Positions 11,178 to 55,234 of a stretch of 64,000 bases of DNA are shown here, in pieces (position 1 is the stretch's first letter; every line of letters begins with the position of its first letter). The stretch spans positions 12,198 through 76,197 of the forward strand of contig CAUQDZ010000002.1 of assembly GCA_963517005.1 (NCBI GenBank), written 5' to 3'. A program made the position numbers and the translations under genes. A model generated the notes under the pieces. That model was not told where the DNA came from, did no database searches, and was given only the letters and a program-made list of their open reading frames with translations. The DNA is from an uncultured bacterium (GTDB taxonomy: Bacteria; Patescibacteriota; Gracilibacteria; Absconditabacterales; Absconditicoccaceae).

Positions 11178-14100
11178 ATGAAGATGAAATCAAAAATTTT
11201 AATTCTCTCATTGTTGTTGGGGGTTGTTATGCATGGCTTCTCTATGGCAGAGGTGGTAGGAATATCACAGCAAAACTGGGATTCTTCAACAAATGATTAT
11301 TGGTTTAATCAAAAGTGTGATGAGGTAAGACAGCAGGAGGTGTATCTCAATCAGTATGGGGTATATCTTGATAATTTTGTTAATCCTGCATCAAATCCTG
11401 GTGCATTGTATTTGCACAAGAATAAAGTCTTGACTAGGGGGAATTATTTATTGTATAACCCATCAAATCATGTAAAAGGAAATGGTTTGAGTATCTTTAA
11501 CCGCGATCTTTTGGGGGTAAGGTGATGGAAGGTTAATCCAGGAGAAAAAGTAAGACATATGACTACTGCTGAAGAGGTAAGTGGAGCATCATTTTCTTAT
11601 GACTGGAAGTTAGATGTTCCATATACAGCGTTTGATGGAAAAAAATTCTATAAACCAAACTTTAGATCAGATGGTACACATCCACAAGCTCCAACAAAAT
11701 TCCCATCACGAGATGCGGAGTTTAGAACTATTACTTTGTATGATAATGATGATAAATTATCTACATCATCAAACAATCGTGCAATTGTTGAGTGTCAACA
11801 ACATGTAATTCGCTGGTGTGGAGATGGAATCTTGGATAAAAAATATGGTGAAAAATGTGATCCTAAAGACCCTCAAAAAGCTGGATGGGGAAATAAGGGA
11901 TGTGATGTATCTTGTCAGCCAATCAATGAGGAAGTAAAAAAGATTTATGATCTTGCACTCACAAAAACTATCCAAAATCAAAAAGATTCTTATACAAAAG
12001 GAGAAAATATTACTTTTGCTATTACGGTTCATAATCAAGGAGAGTTGGTAGCGAGAAATATTGAAGTGACTGATTATTTGCCAGCAGGTCTTGAACTGAA
12101 AGATGCTAATTGGACACAAGAAAATGGAATGATCAAGACTACTATTATTGGTCCTATCAATCCAGGACAGAGCAAAACAGTAAACTTGACAACAAGAATA
12201 AAACCTGACTTTTCAGGAAGTGATATTCTCAATTTGGCAGAGATTTCAAAAGATAATTCTGGAGAATATGGAACCACAGATAAAGATTCTACCCCTGACA
12301 AAAATCAGAATAATGACTGTTTTGTAGAAGGAAAGCATTTGACAAGCGGAAATGCAAAGTCAGGATCAAATGCTTGTAATGATGGAACAGATGAAGATGA
12401 TCATGATGGAGTAAGATTCTCAGTTCGTGATCCTAAAAAGCCAATCTACGATCTCGCACTTACAAAGCAGATTAAGGCTCCAGTAAAGCATGCTTATGCA
12501 CTTGGAGATGAATTAACTTTTGTGATTACTGTGCACAATCAAGGAGAGTTAGTAGCTAGAAATATTGAAGTGACTGATTATCTACCTGAGGGGCTTATTC
12601 TCAAAGATACAAGATGGACTTTTGATCCACAGACCCGTAAGGCTACTTATCAGATTCCAGGAGAACTTGCTGTAAATGGAACAAATTCGTCTAGATCTAT
12701 TGAAATGAATGTAGTGATTGATGGAAACTTTAAGGGATCAAAAATTCTAAATAGAGCTGAAATTAGTCGCGATAATGCTTCAGATTACGGTACAGTTGAC
12801 AAGGACTCTACTCCGGATCAAGATCCAACAAATGATTGTTTCTCAGAATCGTTCCTTCATAGAACTTCTGGAAATGGAAAGGCTAGTTCTGTAGATAACT
12901 GTAATGAAACTACAGATGAAGATGATCACGATGGAGATATTATTACTATTGCAAAGCCAACTATCAAAAAAGATCTTCAAGAAGTTGGCAAGGTTTATCA
13001 AGAAGGAGATCTTGTTGGATTTAAGATGCCTTTTGCCAATAATACTAATGATACTGTAAACAACGTATCTATCAAGGACTTTATGCCACTCAATCTTGAG
13101 TATGTAAGCAGTGAAATCCATGGAGTAACTCCTGCATATCATCAAACATATCAGATTGGTGGTGCAACTGTAGATGAGTGGTCTGGTTTCAATCTTCTTC
13201 CTAGTCAAAATGGAGTATTGTATCTTACCGGTAGAGTACTCAAGACAAATTTGGATTCAAGACTCAATACCGTTGGTATCTATACCAATAATATCCTTGT
13301 AGAAAAGGATTCTGAGCATTATGAACTCGGAAATAGAAAAGTAATTATTGAAAAAGATGTAAATAAAAATCTGGTTGCATCTGGTGAAATTGCTCAATAT
13401 ACGATCAAAGTAACGGCAACAGAAGGTGCTTATGATGAGCTTTTAGTAGTTGATACTTTACCAAAAGGAGTAGTATATCAAGAAGGTTCTTACAAACTAG
13501 GAGCTTCCAATACTCTTGTAAATATTGAATCTGCAACACTTGGAGTTAATGCTCAAGGATTACAGACTATCACATGGAGACTTCGCTTTCCACAAAAACT
13601 AGCTAAAAATCAGACTTTTTCTCTTGTTTATGATGCGAAATTGACAGTTGGAGAAAAGAAAATATATACCAATGTGGCTTGTGTAGAAGATCCAAAAAAG
13701 CCAAATGATACACCAATTTGTGATCCTGCGGATATTACTCCACCAGATCCAAATCCTCCTCGTCCTCCGAGACCAACCGATCCAACAGTTCAAATCAAAA
13801 AATATGTCAATAAGGTTGGTGCAGAATCTGGAAGAGAAGATGTTTTGATGACAGGATTTGCACAAGGACAAACAGGATACTTTACACTAGAAGCTCAAAA
13901 TGCTAGTGCAGGAATGAATACTTTCACGATTACAGATACTATTGAAGGAAATTTGAGTTATGTTGATTCTTCAGATCTTCTTAATAATGCCTTTACAGGA
14001 GTTTTCCTCAGAGGAAATGGAAATTCATCAGCATACAAGTATACAACAAATCAAACTGTTGAAAAGCTTTCAAACAATACTACTAGACTTACTTGGAAGG

Positions 14101-16430
14101 TGGTAATGACAGAAGGTCAGTTCCTTCCTGGAGATAAATATCAGGTACAGTTTAAGGTAAAAGTAAATGGAGATCAGAGAAATATTGCATTTATCGAATA
14201 TCCAGGTGGAAAGTGAAATGATGATGCATCAGTAAAAACAGAAGATGTAAAGCTGACTATCAAAAAGTATGTTTCTGATAAGATTGACGGAACATATAAC
14301 GATGATAGTATTACACTATCCAATAATACGACAGCATTCTTCAAACTTGTAGTATCTGGTGCAACAAATTCTCTTACCTGATTTGTAGTGAAAGATACTA
14401 TTAAAGACAATCTTAAGTTTGATTTCAGTTCGACAGGACTTGCAAATAATGCCTTTACTGGTGTGATTGCATTTGGAGCACAAAATCCAAACAAGCCTGC
14501 TTACAAGATTACACCTACAATCTCAGGAATTTATCCAGCAGATATTGAGTGGAAGGTAGAGATGTTGAATGGTAACTTTATGCCAGGAGATAGTTTGACT
14601 ATCATCTTCAAGGCTACTAAGCTCGGTACACAAGAAAATATCGCAACTGTTGAATATCCAAAAAGAGACGGAACAAAAGGAAAATCTTCTGATCCTGCAA
14701 AAGTAAGAAGTCATAGTACGCCATCGGTTACTCCTCCTAGTACCCCATCAAATGGATGATGAGGATGAGGTGGATATTACTCTCCATCATGTGGAAATGG
14801 ATATAAGAACGGTTATGAAATTTGTGATCGAGAAGGAGAATATAAAATTCCTTCAGATGGAAAACTTTTCAAGAATGAAAATATCTATGATACCAAATAT
14901 GCCGGATATATATGTACCGCTTCTTGTGGTTTAAAAAACAATGGAGAACAAGTAGCTCCAAAGTGTTTCAATCTCCAAAATGGATCAATTTCAATCATGA
15001 AGTGAGAAGTGTTGCCATTCTACTGGAATCTCGATGGTATGGCAGGAAAAGCTACTCCTAAAGAAAAGCAAGATTGGCTTAAAGATCATTATGTAGAAAA
15101 TAAAGACAAAGCTGATTCAACACCAAAGATTGATATTTCTTCTATGAAATGTACCTTCAAGGTTTATGGTCCAGGGCGTAATTTGAGTAATGTAGTTTAT
15201 GATTTTACAGCTCCATGTTTTAATCCTGATGGATGGCAGGACGCACTTCATGGTACTTACTCAAGTATCAAGGACTATATCAATCAAAATAGAGCTGGTT
15301 GGTTAGGAGGTTCTCTTCTTCTAAAGCAAGGACGAGTGAAAAATGTGTTTGATACCTTAGATAATCAAGGCCAATATCCTGTACTTTTCCCACTTTCATC
15401 AAAGCTATTGATTACAGATTTTGGGTCTGGAAACAATAGTCTTCATAAGTCAAATAATGATATTGTAAGATTGGATCCTACAAATATTAAAACCTTTGGA
15501 GAATATAAGGTTGCTCTAGAGAGGATTGATTATACGCTTGTATCAAAAGGAGAAAAGACACTAAATAAAGAAGATAAATTCTTTAATGACAGGATTTGTG
15601 AAGTAGATTTCGCAGTAACTGATCACTATATGATTCAGAGAAGTCCATATGGAATCGGAAACAAGGCTACAAAAGATTTGACGGCATATAAATTGATGAA
15701 ATGAGATAGTTTTATTTCAGATGGGAAACTTTTTGGTACAGAAAGAGCTGTAGAACAAGCTTATGCTCCATCAAAAGAACTTCAAAAGCAATTCACAACC
15801 TTCAAAAACAAGTATGCAAAGTTAGCAAAACCTGTAAAAGGAAAAGAAGGTCTTTCAAAAGTACCAGGAAAGTCTATCTATCTTGTATCTGGTAAAGAAA
15901 TAAATCTTGAAACTCTGATTTCTGATTATAGTAAACCTTTCACTTTGATTGCTACTAAGCCAGATGCAAAGATTATAATCAAGGAAAATCTTAATACCAA
16001 TGCGATGATTATGACACAATGAACGATTACCTTTGATGCAACTAACGCATGTAATGGAAAGCTTGATAAAAAAGGTCATGCTGGACAGATCGTAAAGGGT
16101 ATCTTCTATGCAGGAGCTGGATTTAAATCTTCAGAACATGACAAGCTAAAGAATACTTACGAGAAACTCTCAAAGGGAGAGCGATGTAATTACGGAAATC
16201 TTCATATCAAGGGAGTTGCTATCGGAGATCTGTCAAAAGTTGTGTCAGCTAGAAGATCAGAACTCTATACTTGGTTCCAAGGAAATGGAGGTGGTAAAGA
16301 TGGAGGAGAAAAAGTACAAAAAATAATCAATGGAGCTTCAGTGCTTGTTGATTACAACCCTACTCTTCGAGGAAATCTTCCTCCAGGTGCCAACGAATTT
16401 AACAAGGCGCTTGCTGTTTATAGAAAATAG
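11178..16430 (+). CDS. giant secreted surface protein (1750 aa) with DUF11-type repeat modules, CGDG/CGNG Cys-rich repeats and a Pro-rich linker
   Basis: Signal peptide MKMKSKILILSLLLGVVMHGFSMA. Track ORFs 11178.., 11559.., 14388.., 15009.. and 16242.. are all in frame 0 and joined only by TGA (joins read, no TAA/TAG). Repeated motif block: YDLALTK...ITVHNQGELVARNIEVTDYLP...DKDSTPD...DEDDHDG. Confidence 0.8.
11937..12935 (+). repeat. tandem intragenic duplication of two ~165-aa DUF11-like modules
   Basis: Unit 1 (11937-12410) and unit 2 (12435-12935) both run KK(P)IYDLALTK ... TVHNQGELVARNIEVTDYLP ... YGT.DKDSTPD ... NDCF ... TDEDDHDG. Confidence 0.8.
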
Positions 16431-21306: not shown

Positions 21307-21744
21307 CTATAAAGATAAAGCTGAATATAAATATCAATATAAATATAGAGCAATACTTTCCTGTCCACCATTTCATAACAATAAATGCCCAGTGATCAAT
21401 AACGAAGAGCAAATTATAAACCAAATAAAATTATACAAGCAGTTTTTTTTAACGAAAGCTTTCTTTTTCCATAGATAAAGTTCATTACATATAAAGACAA
21501 GACAGAAAATAATAATTCAAAAAATCATATAGTAATACATTTGTGCGGCTAAGGTAGAGAAAAAGTACTCAAAATAGACAAGGTCAAAATACTCATCTGT
21601 TCCAGGATTGTCCAATAATGGAACTACCTTCATATAAGACAAAAAATTTACAATAGTTGTGAATAATACAATAAAAGTATAGCCAAAAGAAAGTAGGAAA
21701 AAATATCTCGTAGATTTTGGAAAAGTGGGTAGTTGTCGTTTCAT
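21307..21744 (-). CDS. small multi-pass membrane protein, paralog copy 1
   Basis: MKRQLPTFPKSTRYFFLLSFGYTF... reads through TGA codons to TAG (rc) at 21307-21309. An alternative upstream ATG lies at 21768. The first ~70 nt of the CDS are identical to the copy at 43733. Confidence 0.55.
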
Positions 21745-21832
21745 TATTGGTTTATAAAAATAAAACATCTGAGTTAATATATAGTGATATAAATAATGAA
21801 ATCAACTAAAATTTTCCTCAAAAATTCCCTCC

Positions 21833-32163: not shown

Positions 32164-32820
32164 CTATTTTGTAGGAATGATATTCTTGATTGTTACATCA
32201 AAGATAAGGTCTTTACCTGCAAGTTCATGATTTGCATCTACTGTAACTTCCTTGTCGGTGATTTCAGTGATTGTTGCTGGCATATATCCACCGAGCATTA
32301 CTTGAGTCCCTACGGTTACTCCTGAGAGATCTCCAGCTTGTTCGCGAGGTATTTTACCGATAAGTTCTTCTTTTTTCTGACCATATGCTTTATCTGCTGG
32401 GATTTTTAATGTTTTGGTCTCACCTTCTTTCATTCCGATCACTCCAGCATCAAATCCAGCGATCATCTGACCGGCACCTACGGTAAATTCAAGTCCTGAC
32501 TTATAGTCTCTATTAGGATTATATTTTCCAGCAGCTTTTGCTACAGATTCTACACTCGTATCAAAGACATTACTTTCATCGAGTCTACCGATATAGTCTA
32601 CGATAACTTTGTCGCCTGATACAACTTTTGTTTTTTTGATATCTTTATTTGCTGCTGCCAAATAGTCTTTAATTGCTTGTTTTGCACTCATTTGTGTTCA
32701 AGTAGTAGATAAAGTTTGTTCTCCTGTTAATTCAGTTTGAGGAGTTTTGTTTTCTTTGTTTCCGCATCCTGCAAGTACCAAAGCACTAGCTAATGCAAGC
32801 ATAATCATTTGTTTTTTCAT
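32164..32820 (-). CDS. FKBP-type peptidyl-prolyl cis-trans isomerase, lipoprotein
   Basis: Track ORF 32164..32691 carries the FKBP core (VDYIGRL..G.VFDTS......F.VGAGQMIAGFD.GV.GMK.GE). Extending through one TGA adds MKKQMIMLALASALVLAGC, a lipobox signal. Confidence 0.85.
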
Positions 32821-32928: not shown

Positions 32929-33900
32929 TTATTTTTTGTGCAAAATTACTTGAGCGACTTCTCAGTTGGGAATAAGCGGTTCGCTTGGTTCTAGAGTAAT
33001 TAGATAAGCTCCCGTTATATTTTCCGAGGGCGAAATAGTCAATACAGAAGCTTTCAGTTTTTTATCTTTTATGAGCATATCAAGAGTTGAATCCTGATTT
33101 CGCTCGAAAAATTCTCATGAATTGACTAGAATTTCAAGCTGTTTAATCGGATGAGAGAGTCTAAAAGCAAGCTGACCTTTTTCGACATCTTGTCCGCCTG
33201 TGAGCAAGATCTCAGCTACGGTTCAAGAAACAGGAGCTCTCAGTTGTAGTGCTGCATATTGATACAAAGCATCTCGATAAGCGAGTTCTGCTGAGGAGAT
33301 TTGCTGTGCAATATTCTCTTTCTTGCTAAAATATTCGGATTTTGCTTCAGCAAGAGCTGTTTTACTAGTTCTAAAATCTTTTTCTGCGGATTCAAGTTTG
33401 CTAGCAAGGTTAGAGACCAGTTCAGGAGAAAGTTTTTCCTCTTGTAGAGATTTATCTCGTTGGGAAAGGAGTAAGTGATAGTTTTGTTCAGCTTTTTCAG
33501 CTTTTTTTTGTAAAAGAGTAATGGTTTCTTGTTGCTTTCATAGTCCCTTTTTTGCTTCAAGAGAGAGTTGAAGGCGAATGTTTTCGTATTGTGCTTGATC
33601 AGCATAGTGCATTTGTGAGTCTTGGATTTCCAAAATAGGCTGTCCTCCTTTGACTTCCTCTCCAATAGTTACGAGAGGACGGATCATTTTCCCATATACG
33701 ATTGAGGAGACATCAATTATTTCCCCTCCTGTTAGGACCGCAGGTTTGATAATCAATGCACTTCCGCTCAAGAGCGATTCAGGTTGAGATTCTTGTTGTT
33801 CAAAAAAAGAAAAGGAGAGCTTAAATCCAAAACGAAGGATAAGCATCAATCCAAGTCCTATTACAAAACCAGATCCAATTCGCAATAATTTTCTTTTCAT
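32929..33900 (-). CDS. HlyD-family membrane fusion / periplasmic adaptor protein
   Basis: N-terminal TM helix, lipoyl-like ...GGQPILEIQD, long coiled coil, then RAPVS-[TGA=G]-TVAEILLTGGQDV (the A-P-x-x-G-x-V pattern). In frame with track ORF 33538..33900. Stop TAA (rc) at 32929-32931. Confidence 0.7.
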
Positions 33901-33961: not shown

Positions 33962-36676
33962 TTATGATTTTTTTTGCATTTTTAGCTTTTGAATCTTAAT
34001 TTCCAAAGTGAGAAGCTGATCTTTAATCATTGCATATTCATCTTCTTTTTCTTCGACTTTGAGAGGATCAGCAAGAGGAGAGCTATTGAGCATAATCAAA
34101 ACATCCTTGACAGTTTGTAGATAGGTTTGTTTATCGTGATATTGCTTTTCCAATTCGGAAAGTTCATCTTTTTTACATTCGCTTGTCGCATCAGCAACTC
34201 CTAGCTCGCCATCAAGTAACTTAAAACTTGAAAAGTTACGGGGAATTGGCTCATTTCTTTCGCTCATTAAAATCTGATCAACAGAAAGAAGTGAGGAAAG
34301 TACGGTTTGGTTTTCCAAAAGCAAATTGAAGGTTTCTTGGCTTCCTTTATGAAAGAGTGTGATTTTTTGATGTTTTTTAAGTTTAAGTTCTGATTTTTTC
34401 TCAGAAATTTTATGAATCAGATCAAAAAGTTTGTAAATCTTAAAATCTTTTGGACAAGAAAGGTTAAAGCTTGAGCAGCATTGAGACTCTTTACCTATAA
34501 GATGAAGTATTTGCCCCCTCATCTCAGTAAGATATGGGCCCAAAAGCTCTATTAGTTCTAAGAAAATCGTTCCTGCAATATGATAATCTCAATAAATGTC
34601 TAGTTTTTTGATGCATTCCAAGTATCGAGAAAAATCTTTTTTGGTGAAATCTTGTACTCTAGAGATAAACAAAGAAGCAGATCAGTTTTTTTCATTATTT
34701 TGTGCGAGATCTTTGAGTACTGTACACTGTTCAAATATCCATAAGTCTAAAGCAGTTGCACTTGCATTGCTTTGTTCAAAGGCACTGTGTTCGTAGAGTC
34801 GCTTAAAGAGATTTCGCAAATGATTGTGGTAATCATAGGTTTGATCGAGAGACTCCTGATCAGGTTTGATCTGTTGAGCAAAAAGCCAAGTTATTGTATC
34901 TCGACCATATTCTTGTATTTGTGTTAAAGTTTTTTCTGTCCACAAATTTTTTCAAAATCAAAAATTTACATCGATAAATTCATATTCTTTATGTTTTCCT
35001 TTGAGGAAATCAATTAACAAGAGAATAGTCTGTGTTTGCTGGTGTGTATTTAGTGCAAGAGCAAAGGGCTTTTTGAGTTGATCTCTCAAAAGTGAAATTG
35101 CAAAAGTATCCAAAATTTGTTCATCTCGCACTCATAAAAGAGGAGCTTTATTGGGTAAAAAATTTTCTTTAATAAAAAGTAAAGAAAGCTGATCTGGACT
35201 GAGTTTGATCCCTGGATCTTGATTTTCTAAATCGAGTAAGAATGTAATTTGCTCTTCTTCACTGGCTTGTTTAAAGTCCTCAATAGCTCTCAAAAAAATC
35301 TCTTTCTCTCAAAATGCTTCTCATATTAATTGAAGATCATGTTCAGGAATTAAAAAACACAGATCAATCAAATCATTGAATGCAAGTGTCTCTTTAATTT
35401 TTCACTCTAACAATAAGCTCGCAAGTAAAAAAGGGAGAGGCTTTGTTTTGTTGACGATACTTGCTGGCGTATAGAATATTTTTTCTCCCTCATAGGCAAA
35501 ATATTGTCCATAAGGATTGTTGACTTGAGCAAGGATTTTTGTCTCAAATTGAGAAAACTGTTTAGATATATTTTCACCATAATGCTCTTGAATCCAAGCA
35601 AAGAAATCTTCCGCTAGCTCAGTATAGTCTAGTGTGAGTTGGGGGAGAACTTTTTTGAGGAGACGATTTCCTGAAAGTGTAGAATACGCTACTTTTTGAA
35701 CTTGAGTAGTTTCTTCTGCTAAGTTCCCAATTTCTTTTAATCCCAAAATAATATTATCAATATTTTGCAAGATGTTATACTTTATACCTATATTTTCGCT
35801 CTTTTTTTCATTGCTAACAACAGCTTTTTGTACAAAATCCTCTTGTAAATTACCATTCTCATCGATAATGTTTTCATCAATTGGTAGTCAGAGTTCTTTT
35901 ACTTTTTCCAAATGCTGAGGAGATAAAAGAGGATTGATACGGACGATTCCATTGTTTTTCAGTGTATCGATACCATCAGCTCAGAGGATCGGAATTTTTT
36001 TGTTAATAATTGGAAGAATAATATTCTTACCTATAAATTTCTTATATCTTTTGTCGTTGTTATGCACCACTACTGCAACATCAGAAAAAAACGTAGTTAA
36101 GTCATCTACAACAAGAGTTAAGACTTCTCCTTTCGCTTCTACAAAACATTTAATTTGCAAAAGAGGTTGCTCTTCCTCTTTCCAAATGATATGTTCAGCA
36201 TGTACAGGAGTCTGATAATAGGTATCCCGATATACTAGTTGTGGAGTATATTTCCATAATTTTTTCTCACTAAAAAGATCACAAATTTCTTGAATTTTAC
36301 TACTATTGAGACTAGAAAAAGAAAAAGTCTGGTGTTCACCAAGGAAAACCTTAAGACTTTGGTCAGATTTTTTAAGATTTCTTATTTGAGTATGAGAGAT
36401 TCTCTGTTTCTTTGCAAAAAAGGGAAGGTTTGTTTTTTTCTGTAGGCATGATTGATAATTTTGTGTCTCTTGAGAAAATAACACAAGTGGAGAAAAGTTT
36501 TTCTGTTTATTGTGTAAAAGTGATTGAGTATAGAATTTCCAAGATGCAAGACTTTCTCGAGATTTAAGGCTAAGAGGATCAAGTGTTGGCAAAATTAGGG
36601 GATAATATCCATCGACATCGAAAGTCTTATGATGAATTTTTCAGATTTTATGATGATATTTTTTGTTTATAAGCAT
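33962..36676 (-). CDS. valyl-tRNA-synthetase-like protein (904 aa) without recognisable HIGH or KMSKS signatures
   Basis: Track ORFs 35981..36592, 35402..35770, 34682..34945 and 33962..34543 share one frame, and all joins were read with only TGA between them. VAVVVHNNDKRYKKFIGKNIILPIINKKIPIL-G-ADGIDTLKNNGIVRINP parallels the ValRS CP1/editing region. The C-terminus is a ValRS-like coiled coil. The position aligned to P-P-P-N-x-T-G-x-L-H-x-G-H reads PTLDPLSLKSRES. Confidence 0.55.
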
Positions 36677-36729: not shown

Positions 36730-38445
36730 CTAAATTGCGTTTTCGTCACTACGATACGAATAAAGTCTATAGATCAAGTATCCAAGCATTGTAAGGGTCA
36801 AAATTAGCATCATATCTTCTACTGGTCCAACCTTGACTTTTTGAGCTTCGGTGAGCACAGCTTTGTTCCCATCAGCACAGAGTGCTTCTACACTATAGTA
36901 AGCATAAACATCTTCTTTTGAAGTCTTATCAAAAGGATATTCGAATCTAGTCAATTCTGTTTCGCCCAGAAAAGCTTTATCTGTGTTGTCTGCAAAGTCT
37001 GATTTATATACTAGGTATTTTGTTGCATTTTCTACTTTATTTCGTACTAGGTAATATTTATTTCCAATTTTTTGGGTTGAAACCTTGATATTTTTGACTA
37101 CACAGGTTGGGAGTGCAGCAGTTGGATGATCTGGAGTCATTTCTAGTCCAGAAGCTGAAAGTGCAGTTTGATTTGGACCTGTTCCAGTGGCAATAGGCAT
37201 TGTGAATTCTAGTACATCTGATGGTACGCCATCTGGGATATTTGCTGTATTAAGAGGTTGTATCTTAAAAAAATAATCTTTTCCATAAGTAAATCCTGAG
37301 AGCATAGCAACAGTTCCTGTTGTGATAGCAGTTCACGCAAGTTCATCTTTGTTTATTCCATACTGAATTGCATAGGCAGGACTGGATCCGCCTATCACTT
37401 TCCAATCAAGTTGAATTGCTCCAGCTAAAGTAGTCAAAGCCTGAATTTTGACTTCTCCGATCTGGATGTTGTCAGCGACTTCTAGTGTCAGCATTTTGTC
37501 GTATTTTTTCACCAAAGTCGGTCCAGCTGAAAGCTCAGAAGCAATATCAAGTGATCAAGTTTGTGTTAACATCAGTTCTTTGCTGAAAAGTCCATCTTTT
37601 TCTTTATCAAGAGGATATTGTTTGTCCCCAGGTAAAATAAGTTTAGCTGAGCTGACAGAATCTTCTGTTGCGAGTTCAAAACGAACTTTATTTCAGATTT
37701 TTAGATTTTGATTTGGAGTTGCAGTAATGGATTTGAGGAGATTTTCAGATTGTCCTTGATAGGTAAAAACAAGCTTGTCTGAGGCTCAAACTTCCTCATT
37801 AGTTACAGAAAGGGCCTTGAGTTGTAAAACATTAGTTCAAAACTTAAGTCCTGAGATACTATCTCTAACAAGCCCATTGTTATCGGTTGTTGTTTCTTTT
37901 GCGAGTTCATCATTAAGAAGGATTTGTACACGAGCATTAGGCAGATCCTCAGCTGTAGCCATTACATCGATGGTAGACTGATTTTCTTCAACTCATGCAC
38001 TAGGGGAGAGAATATCGATCTTTTTTACATCAGTTCTTTTGTCCGAAGATACAATAACTGTTGTCGATCCTGAAATAGAATCATTTGAAAAATCAGTGAC
38101 ATTCACAGTAAAATTTCCTGGTTTGGTAATTAGAAGGCCTTTTGTATATTTTTTACTTCCTTGATCAGTAAGCCCAAGTTCTAAGATTCCCCCATTGGAA
38201 ATAGTTGCATCTGTCAAAGTTAATTTTGAAGAATTTCCCTTTGAAGCAGAATCTACTGTCATAAAAACCATTCCTGTGTAGTTTTTCATCACTTGCTTGT
38301 TTTTGATCGCCTTCACGGTAAAATCCACTGCTTGATTGACTGCAAATGATGAGGGTGAAACTTCAATCTGAAAAGCATCAGGAGAAACTGCAAAAGTTAT
38401 CCCTAATAAGGCAATCATCAAACTTGATGCTAAAATCCTTTTCAT
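36730..38445 (-). CDS. secreted Ig/FN3-like repeat surface protein with a C-terminal TM anchor (571 aa)
   Basis: Track ORFs 37993..38445, 37333..37515 and 36730..37305 are in the same frame. Every triplet between them was checked for TAA/TAG and none found. Signal peptide MKRILASSLMIALLGITFA, beta-rich repeats, C-terminal helix MMLILTLTMLGYLIY. Confidence 0.6.
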
Positions 38446-38476: not shown

Positions 38477-38974
38477 TTATTCATCGTGATGATGGTGTTC
38501 TCAGAGATTTCCAATACTGAGTCAGTGTTTTACTCCGTTTGAGTCGAGAAAGAGAGCTTCAGCAACAACGACTTGTCCTTCTTCTCCTTCAAAATGTATT
38601 TCAAAAAGATGTTGATTCAGAGGGTTGTTCTTGTAGTTTGAAAGTACAATATCCATAGTTCCAGTGTGTGTCGTCCAAGACTCGAGATAGCCAGACAAGG
38701 AGTCTGATTTTAAGCTTATTTTTTCTGGATTATATTGAAGTTGGAGTTTGAGTTTTCATTGAGTAGGAAGTCTCTCTGATCAAAAAAGCTCAAAAATCTG
38801 ATCTTCAGCCTTGTATGCTACATCTCGACCGGAGTCTTTGATTTGAGAGATCTCAGCAATATCCAAAACACTGGCAGTCATTAGACCTCATTGTTGGGCA
38901 AGTTGAAAAAGCCCCCGTCCGAGCAGCCCTCACACTACAATAATCCCAAAGTTTTTCAAAAGTTTCGTCCGCAT
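38477..38974 (-). CDS. hypothetical membrane-anchored protein with a His-rich C-terminus (165 aa)
   Basis: Reconstructed through 6 TGAs, 166 codons counted. N-terminal hydrophobic helix. Ends ...EHHHHDE. Confidence 0.4.
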
Positions 38975-39296
38975 CTCAAAAATTGGAATAAAATACACAA
39001 GTATACCTTATATCATAGCAAAATTCAAGAAAAAGTCAAACCGAAAAAAGAAAAAACTGATTTAGAATTCTGTTTTTTTTCTTTTGATTTTTTTAGTCAA
39101 AAAAAACTTCTTGACAAATGGATAGAAATATTAAAAAAGAATATTTTTTCTGTCACAAAATGCAGGGTAATTCGTACATTTGAATGTAGCAAAAGAAGTA
39201 TTCCAAATTAGACAAGAAACTTGCATAATTTTCCCTTCAAGTTTCACTCAAAATATGCTTTAGCACCTTTATTTCTCAAAAATCCATGCTAAGATT

Positions 39297-43732: not shown

Positions 43733-44110
43733 ATGAAACGACAACTACCCACTTTTCCAAAATCTACGAGATATTTTTTCCTACTTTCTTTTGGCTATAC
43801 CTTTGTAGTATTACTTACAACTATTGTAAATTTTTTATCGTATGCTAAAGTTGTTTGACAAATCTCTAGTCCTGATGAAAACCTTCAACTCAATTATATG
43901 GTGTACTTTTTCCCTACCTTAGCCGCACAAATGTACTACTATATGATTTTTTGAATTATTATTTTCTGTCTTGGTTTTATATTTAATGAACTTTATCTAT
44001 GGAAAAAGAAGGCTTTTGTTGGGAAAAACTTCTTGTATAGTTTTATTTGGCTTTTGATTTGTTCCTTACTATTGGTAAGTGGACATTTAATTCTATGAAA
44101 TGGGCATTAA
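43733..44110 (+). CDS. small multi-pass membrane protein, paralog copy 2
   Basis: MKRQLPTFPKSTRYFFLLSFGYTF... 126 codons counted through 3 TGAs to TAA 44108-44110. Inverted paralog of 21307..21744. Confidence 0.55.
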
Positions 44111-52768: not shown

Positions 52769-55012
52769 TTAAGAGATTTGCTTTTTTAAAATACTCAAGC
52801 TTCCTTGATATTTTTTGAGTTCTTTAAGCAAAAATGAAGCCTTAGCAGGATTGTCGAGTTCAAGTGTGAAATCCACGAGAATTTGTCCGCTTTCTGTATG
52901 CTTAATAGCCATTTCTGTGAGTTGGATATTAAATTGGACAAAGAGCTGGATAAATTCCATCACAGACAATTCCTTAGGTAAGAATCTTATTTTGAGCTTG
53001 AGGAAATAAGGAGATGAAGCCTGGCTTTTTCGATGTGCTTCCATCAAAGCATCAAGAGAAATCGTTTTGAGAGCTTTACAACTTGTGGTATGGATTTTGA
53101 TGCCGTCTTGAGTGGACTTGGCAATGATTTTTGTTTGTGGGTTTGGTTTACATTCTGGACAAAAAAAACAGTGCAAGAATTTATCGCCATCAACTACGAT
53201 ATCAGCAGGTGAAAATCCTGACTCCAAAGTGTGAATCTGAGTTTTGAGGTCAGATTTTTCTACTTCGGTATCCTTGAGGATTGTTCTTTCTTCTACAGAT
53301 TTTCATGCATCTGGGTAAGAATCCCTAACGATATTTCAATAAGTTTCTTGTTTGTCGAGTACGGATAAGATTCTTTTTTCTATTTCGAGTTGATCTGTAG
53401 ATTTTGAGATTTTGTCTTTTTCAGATCAATAGAGTGGTAAACCGCAGTCTTTGAGATAGCTATTTAGTCCAGTAATCGCCTCTTGCAAACGAGCATCTCT
53501 TTCAATCATTTTGATGTATTTGAGGAGTTGATTTTTTGCAGTTGGGGTACGGAGAAATTCGAGCCAGTGTTTTGTTGCTGAGTATTTGTTTTTGAAAGTG
53601 TTGATATTAACAATATCTCAGGTTTTAAGTTTGTAAGAGATAGGTTTGATTTGTCCATTGACGATAGCATTCTTGAATCTCAATCCAATAGAGGAATGAA
53701 TGCTAAACGCAAAATCCAAAACTGTAGATCCAATAGGGAGCTCTTTAATATCTCCTCTCGGAGTATAAATAAAGATTGTTTTGTCTAAGACTTCAATGTT
53801 GAGTTGAGATTTGAATTTTTCCTTTTGTTCTGCATCGACATAGTCTGAAACAATTTTTTGAAGCCTTTGAACCCAAAGTCCTTGTTGTTCAGAGATTACG
53901 GTTGGTGCGTTGCTCTCAGCATAGGCAAAGTGAGCGGCTACTCCAAATTCTGCGATATTTTCCATTTCTTGAGTTCTGATCTGGATTTCTACGGGGAAGC
54001 GGAACATTCCCAAAACCGTAGTATGAATACTTTTGTATCCATTAAATTTTGGAATCGCAATGTAATCCTTGATTTTTTTGATAATTGGAATAAAGTACTT
54101 GTGAATAACTCCCAGTACTGTATAACAATCTCCAACACTCTTGGTAATTACTCTAAATGCGAGCAAATCCATTACCGTTGTAATGTCGGTGTCTTGATAT
54201 TTTTTTGAGAGCTTTTCATAGACTCTATATGGACTTTTGATCCTTCATTTAACAGTAAAATTCTGAAGTCATTCTTTGTACAGCATAGTAGTTAAGGTTT
54301 TAACTCCTTTTTCGGTGTGTTTCTCTCCTTCTCCAAAGTACTTTTTGAGTTGAGCAGTGATTGTCTTAAAATCTTCAGGATGCAAAACAGCAAATGAGCC
54401 ATTTTCGAGCAGAAGTTGAAAATGATAGAGGCCAAGCCTTTTTGCCAAGGGGGCATAGATTTTGATTGTTTCTTCTGCTATTTTTTTTCTTTTTCTTTCT
54501 TCTGGATGGAATTGTAGCGTCTGAATATTGTGGATACGGTCTGCTAACTTTACAAAAATCACTCTCAAATCTTTTGCCATTGCCAAAAAGGTTTTTTTTA
54601 TCGTTTCCAGGTGGCGATCTTCTCCTTGATATCTGACTTTTGAAACTTTTGTGAGCCCCTCACAAATTTCTCCAACTTCTTCTCCAAATTCTGCAGTGAT
54701 TTGTTCACGGGTAATCTCGGTATCTTCAATGATATCGTGCATGATACAAGATTGAATCGATTCCAAATCGGGTTTAAGCTCCATCAAAAAAAGAGTTGCC
54801 TTGAGGGGATGCACAATATAAGGTTCCCCAGATAGTCTTTTAACTCCAGAATGTGCAGCTTTGGTAAAGCGATAAGCATGGTAAATCTCAGGAATTTGTT
54901 CTGCAGGCAAGTATTTCTTTGCTTGTGAGACGATTTCTTCCAAGATTTCCACTGGATCTTCTTCAAAGGTCAATTGGTAATCAAAAAAACTATCAAGTTC
55001 TTTAATGTCCAT
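52769..55012 (-). CDS. relA: bifunctional (p)ppGpp synthetase/hydrolase RelA/SpoT family
   Basis: Track ORFs 54269..55069, 53618..54172 and 52769..53227 share a frame, and the gaps were read triplet by triplet. HD domain (HPLKATLFL...IMHDIIEDT), synthetase domain (YKSIHTTV), TGS and ACT-like C-terminus. Start ATG 55012. Confidence 0.9.
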
Positions 55013-55234
55013 GAGTTTCTTGAAAGGAAAAATAAAAAATCTGATTTCAGCTTTCGTGTGTCTCACCAAAAGGGAGTCTTAAAAAAAGCGTATGCTTAAA
55101 AAGTAAGGATATTGTACTCATAATCAAGAGAAAATGCAAAAAATTACAAAAAAACATCACGAATTTTCTCACTTGGCTTTTTGCCTTAAGATTTAAGAAA
55201 AAATCGTAATGTTGCTGTTTAAATGAAGTGTTGC

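Follow-up and report, generated by a model that had tools for sequence, protein, structure and literature searches.

HisZ and the catalytic-like domain in the beta subunit of PheRS are known cases in which the fold of an aminoacyl-tRNA synthetase has remained under selection after the aminoacylation chemistry was lost. HisZ is a HisRS-like protein that regulates ATP-phosphoribosyltransferase, and the cyclodipeptide synthases have a class I-type Rossmann fold without the ATP-binding signatures. Non-catalytic relatives of synthetases are a known type, but to our knowledge there is no full-length class Ia protein among them. The PheRS beta domain has been described as a non-catalytic synthetase module (PMC11580382). 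We identified a gene in a 64,000 nucleotide stretch of bacterial DNA (the whole of which is referred to here as the window) that encodes a protein similar to valyl-tRNA synthetase (ValRS), in which the signatures of the catalytic sites have been lost. The gene (33962..36676, minus strand) consists of 904 codons and a TAA stop codon when read with genetic code 25, in which UGA encodes glycine (see below). The protein is a new instance of the known type of non-catalytic synthetase paralogue and is found throughout a clade of bacteria. Full-text literature searches brought up neither a description of a non-catalytic ValRS-like paralogue nor one of synthetase paralogues from Absconditabacteria or Gracilibacteria, and in at least one public record (PID34714.1) a family member carries the annotation 'hypothetical protein CR971_01820 [candidate division SR1 bacterium]'.

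The comparison with the described systems shows both likeness and difference. HisZ and the PheRS beta subunit belong to class II and their partners and roles are known, whereas the window protein is a full-length class Ia protein in which the editing domain is dead too. With the cyclodipeptide synthases it shares a class I-type fold without ATP signatures, and it may still handle tRNA. Cyclodipeptide synthases are however small, class Ic-like proteins with conserved catalytic residues of their own, and no such pocket residues are found in the ValRS-like family. The domain order and fold of T. thermophilus ValRS (1GAX/1IVS) are present from the N-terminus to the coiled coil.

Profile comparisons and structure models indicate genuine homology of the window protein to class Ia ValRS, with all domains present in their usual order. 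In searches with NCBIfam profiles it matched NF004349 (E 6e-32, 110.8 bits, curated cut-off 704) and TIGR00422 (E 3e-23, 81.6 bits, curated cut-off 612.1), in both cases over residues ~116-365 only, so that the equivalog cut-off for a functional ValRS was not reached with either profile. A phmmer search with the window protein found T. thermophilus ValRS (1GAX) at E 5e-5 and also the isolated editing domain (1WK9). A Pfam search of the window protein gave no match, tRNA-synt_1 and Anticodon_1 included; among 45 family members, Anticodon_1 was recognized in 23 and tRNA-synt_1 in nine. Searches with a single sequence detect the region of the editing domain only, and the remainder of the homology to ValRS becomes visible with profiles. 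A profile of the 45 family members matched 1GAX with an E-value of 1.8e-61 in an alignment starting from residue 1, and hhalign aligned the close family with 18 canonical ValRS of UGA=Gly bacteria over 766 columns (probability 100, E 1.4e-61). An AlphaFold model of P0001, which is 96% identical to the window protein, had a pLDDT of 81 and a pTM of 0.68, and a second model, built with motif-less family members only, had a pLDDT of 86.5 and a pTM of 0.76. T. thermophilus ValRS (1GAX_A) was the top Foldseek match for both models (E 4.5e-25 and 2.6e-26; TM-score 0.55-0.61 over ~965 columns), followed by IleRS and then by LeuRS. The predicted order of domains is that of class Ia, with a Rossmann fold split by connective peptide 1 (CP1), a helix-bundle anticodon domain, a C-terminal junction domain and a coiled coil of the ValRS type. 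The initial annotation, made from the sequence, had described the protein as collinear with ValRS up to its C-terminal coiled coil, and this is borne out by the profiles, the hhalign alignment and the structure matches. The anticodon-binding region and the coiled coil which it had noted are likewise found as landmarks in hhalign and in the AlphaFold and Foldseek results, and the hhalign score speaks against the possibility, raised at the time, that there is no similarity to class Ia synthetases at all.

To compare the motifs, the window protein was aligned with eight canonical ValRS. The HIGH signature PPPNVTGSLHMGH aligns with P30-TLDPLSLKSRES-42 of the window protein (36551..36589, minus strand), the placement that had been given before. 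Both histidines are absent from this segment, residue 40 is encoded by CGA and is probably Trp, and the HIGH column is unconserved within the family. No counterpart was found in this alignment for TDHAG, which had already been noted as replaced, nor for WCISRQ.WWGHRIP and DVLDTWFSS. The KMSKS loop falls in a deletion beside E581-K582 in the hhalign alignment, and no KMSKS-like motif occurs anywhere in the window protein. The loss of KMSKS had been recognized in the initial annotation, but its position had been assigned to KGKHKEY (residues 559-565), an unconserved Lys-rich patch upstream of E581-K582; neither of the two places is KMSKS-like or conserved. The Thr-rich loop of the editing domain, TTRPET in ValRS, corresponds to V190-DDLTT-195 (36092..36109, minus strand), so that the loss of this motif was stated correctly and its placement at DDLTTF was off by one residue. 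The strand of the editing pocket which in T. thermophilus reads K270-V-T272-P-A-H-D276-P-L-D279 aligns with R246-INPLLSPQ-H255 (35912..35941, minus strand; alignment and phmmer), with S252 at the position of D276 and H255 at that of D279, and contains no Asp. The roles of the T. thermophilus residues we take to be those given in the literature on 1GAX and 1WK9. Thus, compared with the enzymes represented by TIGR00422 and NF004349, the window protein is without HIGH, TDHAG, WCISRQ.WWGHR, DVLDTWFSS and KMSKS, and the TTRPET loop and Asp279 of the editing site are lost as well. No intact HIGH or KMSKS motif that could have been misplaced was seen in the alignments. As judged from these alignments, the signatures of the site for ATP and valine activation and of the hydrolytic editing site are all lost.

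The individual regions of the protein differ strongly in how well they are conserved. Identities were calculated region by region, once across the family's three close clades and once among the canonical ValRS of UGA=Gly bacteria. The N-terminal half of the Rossmann fold (residues 1-135; 36272..36676, all regions on the minus strand) keeps the N-terminal KKY motif of the clade and the strand that ends in P30, and beyond these is too diverged for hhalign; identity is 26% in the family and 56% in canonical ValRS. The CP1 or editing-domain homologue (residues 136-350; 35627..36271) shows the highest conservation in the family, with 53% identity and 27% of the columns invariant (canonical 58%). 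It carries KCFVE.K and H.NDKRYKK.IGK..I.P.INK.IPI, in which the sequence core D.RY...GK..I.P.....IP of the ValRS CP1 domain is recognizable. In the first part of the C-terminal Rossmann half (residues 351-410; 35447..35626), the place of the absent WCISRQ.WWGHRIP, identity is 18% with none of the 60 columns invariant (canonical 49%). A helical insertion follows (residues 411-520; 35117..35446) which has an LIDL motif, is common to the ~1000 amino acid canonical ValRS of Absconditabacteria, and is 19% identical in the family and 35% in canonical ValRS. The second part of the C-terminal Rossmann half (residues 521-585; 34922..35116) includes the place of KMSKS but no such motif, and identity is 20% in the family compared to 64%, with 30% of the columns invariant, in canonical ValRS. 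Over the C-terminal Rossmann half, 0-3% of the columns are invariant in the family.

The C-terminal modules are conserved differently. The anticodon-binding helix bundle (residues 586-735; 34472..34921) keeps landmarks that it has in common with ValRS, namely YG.D..R, (W)N622, WY.E..K690 and L.P..P717 (identity 30%, canonical 48%). The C-terminal junction alpha/beta domain (residues 736-835; 34172..34471) has the pattern KD(Y/F)K...FD...LKKH and is 33% identical in the family and 31% in canonical ValRS. The coiled coil (residues 836-904; 33965..34171) is 42% identical with 22% of the columns invariant, compared to 38% and 1% in canonical ValRS. It ends in a conserved tail, (E/D)IKI(Q/K)K.KM..K, and the tip motif N..F...AP..V, universal in the coiled coil of ValRS, is replaced by one that is specific to the family. 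The pattern of conservation is therefore, at the level of the alignments, inverted relative to a real ValRS: the peripheral modules, and no longer the active site, are the constrained parts. In the Rossmann core of the family, no conserved polar residues were seen from which a new active site might be formed.

The gene can be read only if TGA is a sense codon. Translation with table 11 splits 33962-36676 of the minus strand into four open reading frames (ORFs) of 87-203 amino acids, and all 11 internal stops of the frame are TGA (codons 12, 232, 263, 425, 452, 456, 515, 573, 575, 665, and 696), whereas the terminator is TAA. Most genes of the window are fragmented in the same way in standard-code ORF lists. 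The ORFs of at least 150 amino acids, summed over six frames, cover 37% of the window, and more than its whole length once TGA is read as sense; a non-overlapping set of such TGA-sense ORFs spans 88% of it. Across the window, 221 TGA codons were counted in 50 ORFs, which is ~18% of the Gly codons. In orthologues, the residue facing a TGA codon is Gly 118 times and Trp is not among the ten commonest; database sequences of the UGA=Gly clade have been translated with code 4, so that a W in these can stand for Gly. As Gly rather than Trp stands in these columns, the sequence evidence is that the genome uses code 25. The residues facing CGA codons (40, 517, 592, 621, 626, and 684 in the ValRS-like gene) are Trp 34 times, followed by Leu, Tyr and Phe, and Arg is not among the top residues. 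Codons 621 and 684 align with the conserved Trp of the canonical ValRS motifs K.WNA and CDWY.E. CGG, with 5 codons in the window, is very rare, and the one case that was checked aligns with Arg. The pattern agrees with the reading of CGA as Trp that was predicted for Absconditabacteria (PMC8629427). CGA in the window therefore seems to be read as Trp, and probably not as Arg, and the locus lends independent support to this assignment in the Absconditabacteria lineage. The host is, as had been guessed, a bacterium of the candidate phyla radiation (CPR) and belongs to SR1/Absconditabacteria. The closest species-representative genomes are metagenome-assembled genomes (MAGs) of 'candidate division SR1' (Absconditabacteria) from the human mouth (L011, L015), and the metagenome contig ODVC01000049.1 has 96.5% DNA identity.

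Relatives of the window protein that have lost the same motifs form a family. A word-indexed protein search identified 13 full-length relatives of 32-96% identity, none of which has the catalytic motifs. An exhaustive profile search gave 1273 matches, 85 of them below 1e-30, and the best 150 of the 1273 include about 40 full-length proteins, each representing a cluster at 50% identity, that lack HIGH, KMSKS, TDHAG and TTRPET. A search of the word index with a profile of the broad family gave nothing beyond the close family and canonical ValRS that are unrelated. Intact full-length orthologues are present in dozens of lineages, down to ~16% identity, and the motif-less family groups apart from canonical ValRS in a rough neighbour-joining tree. 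All 15 family genes from species-representative genomes lack the full motif set. Some members have remnants, such as HMGY, HMGQ or HLGN in place of HIGH, WCISRQ or RCISRQ, T.RP.T, TTNPET, and TPxHD, and such partial motifs fit a stepwise decay from a real ValRS. The genomes are classified as SR1, Absconditabacterales, Absconditicoccaceae, UBA5124 and UBA6263, or are MAGs labelled Gracilibacteria or Peribacteria, and each of the 15 genes extracted contains 10-29 in-frame TGA codons. The ValRS-like genes of five MAGs named 'uncultured Candidatus Peribacteria bacterium' (L026, L029, L034, L036, L055) have 12-29 of these codons; either these bacteria have a TGA-sense code or the taxonomic label is a loose one.

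The ratio of nonsynonymous to synonymous substitution rates (dN/dS) of the ValRS-like gene, computed with CGA read as Arg, was 0.10-0.13 in six pairs (L005 compared with L012-L018). The sequence comparisons thus support that the gene was kept intact by purifying selection after the catalytic residues had been lost, as expected of a pseudo-enzyme. As it is conserved, intact and has a dN/dS of ~0.1 in dozens of lineages, the gene is regarded as encoding a pseudo-enzyme with another role and not as a dying gene. This agrees with the proposal in the initial annotation of a pseudo-synthetase kept for another function, for which the loss of the motifs, the intact frame, the dN/dS and the conserved locus (see below) all speak.

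Canonical ValRS with all motifs intact occur in UGA=Gly bacteria in two forms. The ~885 amino acid form is represented by P0116, P0257 and P0260, the last of which is named 'Candidatus Gracilibacteria', and the ~1000 amino acid form by P0049 and P0177 ('valine--tRNA ligase [Candidatus Absconditabacteria bacterium]'). The longer form has a ~120 amino acid helical insertion between WCISRQLWWGHR and DVLDTWFSS. This insertion has invariant residues of its own, FN...D......F (P0049, P0172-P0246), and is absent from the ~885 amino acid Gracilibacteria-type enzyme. The HIGH region of the canonical forms reads PPPNVT-W-VLHL-W-HA in code-4 translation, that is, both Gly are encoded by TGA; in three canonical database sequences (P0049, P0109, P0116) the two glycines of PPPNVTG.LH.GH are both TGA-encoded. 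The ValRS-like family aligns with high confidence through the ~120 amino acid insertion in hhalign, and an N-terminal (F)PKKY motif and features of the coiled coil are common to the family and the ~1000 amino acid form. As these three characters are shared, the family most likely originated by duplication of an insertion-bearing valS gene inside the Absconditabacteria/Gracilibacteria clade. The origin is argued from the shared insertion and not from the neighbour-joining tree, the rooting of which is unreliable because of long branches. The canonical ~1000 amino acid ValRS of Absconditabacteria (P0049, P0177, L025, L031) are thus of the same clade as the family and share with it the TGA=Gly code, the insertion and a similar coiled-coil tail, but differ in that every signature is kept (PPPNVT-G-VLHL-G-HA), the gene neighbourhoods are other ones and the conservation profile is normal.

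Of the 18,671 codons in the window, 5.45% specify valine, and each of the four GTN codons occurs, so that the cell must have ValRS activity. Genomes of Absconditabacterales do encode canonical ValRS that keep every motif and have in-frame TGA codons (P0049, P0177, L025, L031). A tblastn search with canonical code-25 ValRS in 69 loci and the window (1.2 Mb) found no second valS near the family genes, and a metagenome scan yielded, apart from family members, just two short and incomplete matches similar to ValRS. The assemblies of eight proteins that were looked up (JBBQVK01, JBPLSS01, CAZOFM01, and several ERZ/Logan runs) showed no overlap with assemblies known to carry the paralogue. Three other proteins (P0015, P0306, P0014) were rejected as the partner enzyme; their code-4 translations do not have the pattern of Trp for Gly, so that they are not from UGA=Gly organisms. 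The best 120 relatives of P0049 reach down to ~665 bits, and a canonical enzyme of 38% identity or less would score lower. Because the valine codons need a ValRS and constraint has left the active site of the window protein, the genome is expected to encode, at another site, a separate ValRS of the canonical kind that carries out the charging with valine.

The ValRS-like gene is part of a cassette on the minus strand, in the order of genes for a 173 amino acid protein, a 571 amino acid protein, the ValRS-like protein, a HlyD-like protein, an FKBP lipoprotein and a 152 amino acid membrane protein, with intergenic gaps of 18-108 bp. The first gene (38477..38998) encodes a product with a hydrophobic N-terminus, and the 571 amino acid protein (36730..38445) is predicted to have an N-terminal signal peptide and a C-terminal transmembrane helix. 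Neither protein gave a match in searches of Pfam, NCBIfam and the PDB. Downstream of the ValRS-like gene are a gene for a 323 amino acid membrane-fusion protein resembling HlyD and adaptors of resistance-nodulation-division systems (32929..33900; weak matches below curated cut-offs), and one for an FKBP-type peptidyl-prolyl isomerase with the lipoprotein signal LAGC (32164..32820), which is syntenic in two of three close clades. In a consensus scan, the promoter-like site that ranks best in the region (TTGACT-16-TG-TATGAT; 39012..39039, minus strand) lies just upstream of the first cassette gene, and a scan of the same kind found no terminator-like site between 39300 and 32700.

Wherever a family locus includes upstream sequence, the gene directly before the ValRS-like gene encodes an orthologue of the 571 amino acid protein, and this adjacency persists, at 30-36% identity, in the most distant loci. 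In most family loci a small gene (~130-170 amino acids) precedes the ~570 amino acid gene. This pair of genes is conserved throughout the UGA=Gly clade, and orthologues were seen in L001-L006, L011-L024, L026, L027, L034, L036-L038, L042, L049, L055, L056, and L070-L078. In L077, a 321-kb contig (BNJT01002474.1), the cassette is present with its tblastn matches split over several frames, which suggests frameshift errors in the assembly. The ~570 amino acid protein is more conserved than the ValRS-like protein (56% and 42% identity compared to 34% and 32%), and dN/dS is 0.02-0.11 for its gene, with values of 0.02-0.04 noted among close relatives, and 0.13-0.33 for the small gene. A HlyD-like homologue follows the ValRS-like gene only in clades of the window type; in the locus of P0034 the next gene is one for an ABC transporter, located on the opposite strand. 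The neighbours in the cassette are absent from seven canonical valS loci (L007, L008, L025, L031, L069, L081, L082). Of the envelope operon described in the initial annotation, the operon-like arrangement with conserved adjacency and the FKBP lipoprotein hold, the HlyD match is weak, and the label 'Ig-like' given to the upstream protein finds no support in the databases. As the adjacency is conserved, the genes for the ValRS-like protein, the 173 amino acid protein and the ~570 amino acid surface-anchored protein are probably co-transcribed, and the role of the ValRS-like protein is probably tied to the other two.

Taken as a whole, we think it probable, though well short of certain, that the window protein is a non-catalytic paralogue of ValRS that arose by duplication within the clade and has been kept as a binding scaffold tied to the surface-protein cassette. 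Most likely, an insertion-bearing valS of the Absconditabacteria/Gracilibacteria lineage was duplicated. The activation site of the protein (HIGH, KMSKS and the motifs of the Rossmann core) and its editing site have decayed. Selection has kept a folded ValRS-shaped scaffold, and most strongly the body of CP1, the anticodon bundle, the C-terminal junction and the coiled coil. The remaining activity would then most likely be binding without chemistry, of tRNA(Val), of Val-tRNA(Val), or of a protein partner that uses the same surfaces. We take tRNA(Val) or its charged form as the default ligand because the retained modules hold tRNA in a real ValRS. Several points weigh against this explanation or parts of it. 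The tip motif N..F...AP..V of the coiled coil is replaced and the residues of the pocket for the aminoacyl end in CP1 are changed, so that, going by the alignments, the ligand may not be tRNA and a protein partner is a serious alternative. Net charges of the individual domains, taken as a stand-in for tRNA binding, did not tell the alternatives apart. The paralogue and a canonical valS were not found together in any of the assemblies and contigs examined, and in reduced genomes conserved adjacency can persist without a functional link.

The retention of tRNA-holding modules together with the loss of the ATP-site motifs would also suit a carrier or adaptor that holds Val-tRNA(Val) or another charged tRNA, without hydrolysis, for a partner by which the co-encoded surface protein or the cell wall would be modified. 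Such a role would resemble that of tRNA-dependent transferases and of the cyclodipeptide synthases. The ~570 amino acid surface-protein gene next to it in every family locus with upstream sequence, a promoter-like site found only before the cassette and the lack of terminators inside it are in line with this idea, which may be entertained but is unlikely; that such a carrier would feed a tRNA-dependent modification of the co-encoded surface protein itself is slightly more doubtful. The idea rests purely on gene context, no transferase-like gene is conserved in the cassette, and the Rossmann core offers no conserved polar residues for a new active site. A role as a trans-editing factor, in which CP1 clears mischarged Thr-tRNA(Val) or another aminoacyl-tRNA and the dead body serves as a handle for the tRNA, would explain why CP1 is the most conserved region, why the anticodon-binding and C-terminal domains are retained and why less derived members keep remnants of TPxHD and T.RP.T. 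The Thr-rich loop and an Asp of the D279 type are however essential for hydrolysis in class Ia editing domains, and in the window protein the loop reads VDDLTT and the equivalent of D279 is replaced (H255), which, to judge from the sequences, is also the case in the less derived P0029 and P0032. The retained hydrolytic-site residues expected of a free-standing or trans-editing deacylase are thus not found, and the free-standing editing proteins of which we know keep their catalytic residues, which leaves this role distinctly unlikely.

The absence of a canonical valS from the 64-kb window and from the flanks of the family loci would be explained if the protein were the sole ValRS of its genome and charged tRNA(Val) by means of a rebuilt active site without class I signatures. 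The paralogue-bearing host-associated clusters (160-590 members), for which there is no obvious abundant canonical match among the best 120 relatives of P0049, point weakly in the same direction. An essential active site would however be the most conserved part of the protein, as it is in canonical code-25 ValRS, and the family has no conserved residue at the HIGH or KMSKS positions and next to no invariant columns in the C-terminal Rossmann half. Moreover, canonical ValRS genes with in-frame TGA codons exist in the same order of bacteria, the paralogue evolves faster than its neighbour (34% and 32% identity compared to 56% and 42%), and we know of no class I synthetase that works without both signatures. 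We therefore consider a sole ValRS very improbable. The same low probability is given to a situation in which the host-associated SR1 carriers have no canonical valS at all and make Val-tRNA(Val) by a novel chemistry, or obtain valyl-tRNA or ValRS activity from their host. The 11 stops in the standard-code frame and the missing catalytic motifs could in principle point to a decaying pseudogene or to an artefact of translation with the wrong code. Every internal stop is TGA, which is Gly across the window, intact full-length orthologues extend through dozens of lineages to ~16% identity, dN/dS is ~0.1 and the AlphaFold models are confident. Neither a disrupted frame nor a dN/dS near 1 was found, and the chance that the gene is a pseudogene or an artefact is negligible. 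The non-catalytic, scaffold-like ValRS paralogue remains the explanation that we favour.

Other features of the window were noted as well. Three very large ORFs of 1494, 1750 and 1794 amino acids are located on the plus strand (6655..11139, 11178..16430, and 58066..63450, respectively) and contain 9-27 TGA codons each; in the 1750 amino acid protein, four DUF11 repeats follow from the domain search and a signal peptide is predicted. Two small ORFs (21307..21768, minus strand; 43733..44110, plus strand) start with a nearly identical N-terminal sequence, MKRQLPTFPKSTRYFFLLSFGYTF..., and by their sequences look like a duplicated membrane-protein gene. A full RelA/SpoT homologue with the domains HD_4, RelA_SpoT and TGS is found beside a CobW-type GTPase that has a long C-terminal extension (52769..55069 and 55235..56815, minus strand).

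The findings have consequences for work on these genomes. valS is used as a single-copy marker gene, and a divergent second homologue, or a real valS that is missed, would bias estimates of completeness for the clade. A DNA pattern based on the TGA-encoded glycines of the HIGH region would single out the canonical valS of recoded genomes. For the family itself, a protein in which both the synthetic and the editing chemistry have been lost and which is yet widely kept in the sampled UGA=Gly CPR bacteria provides a natural case for what the surfaces of a synthetase do without catalysis. Its fixed place behind a conserved pair of surface-protein genes offers a lead into the surface biology of these uncultivated, host-dependent bacteria.

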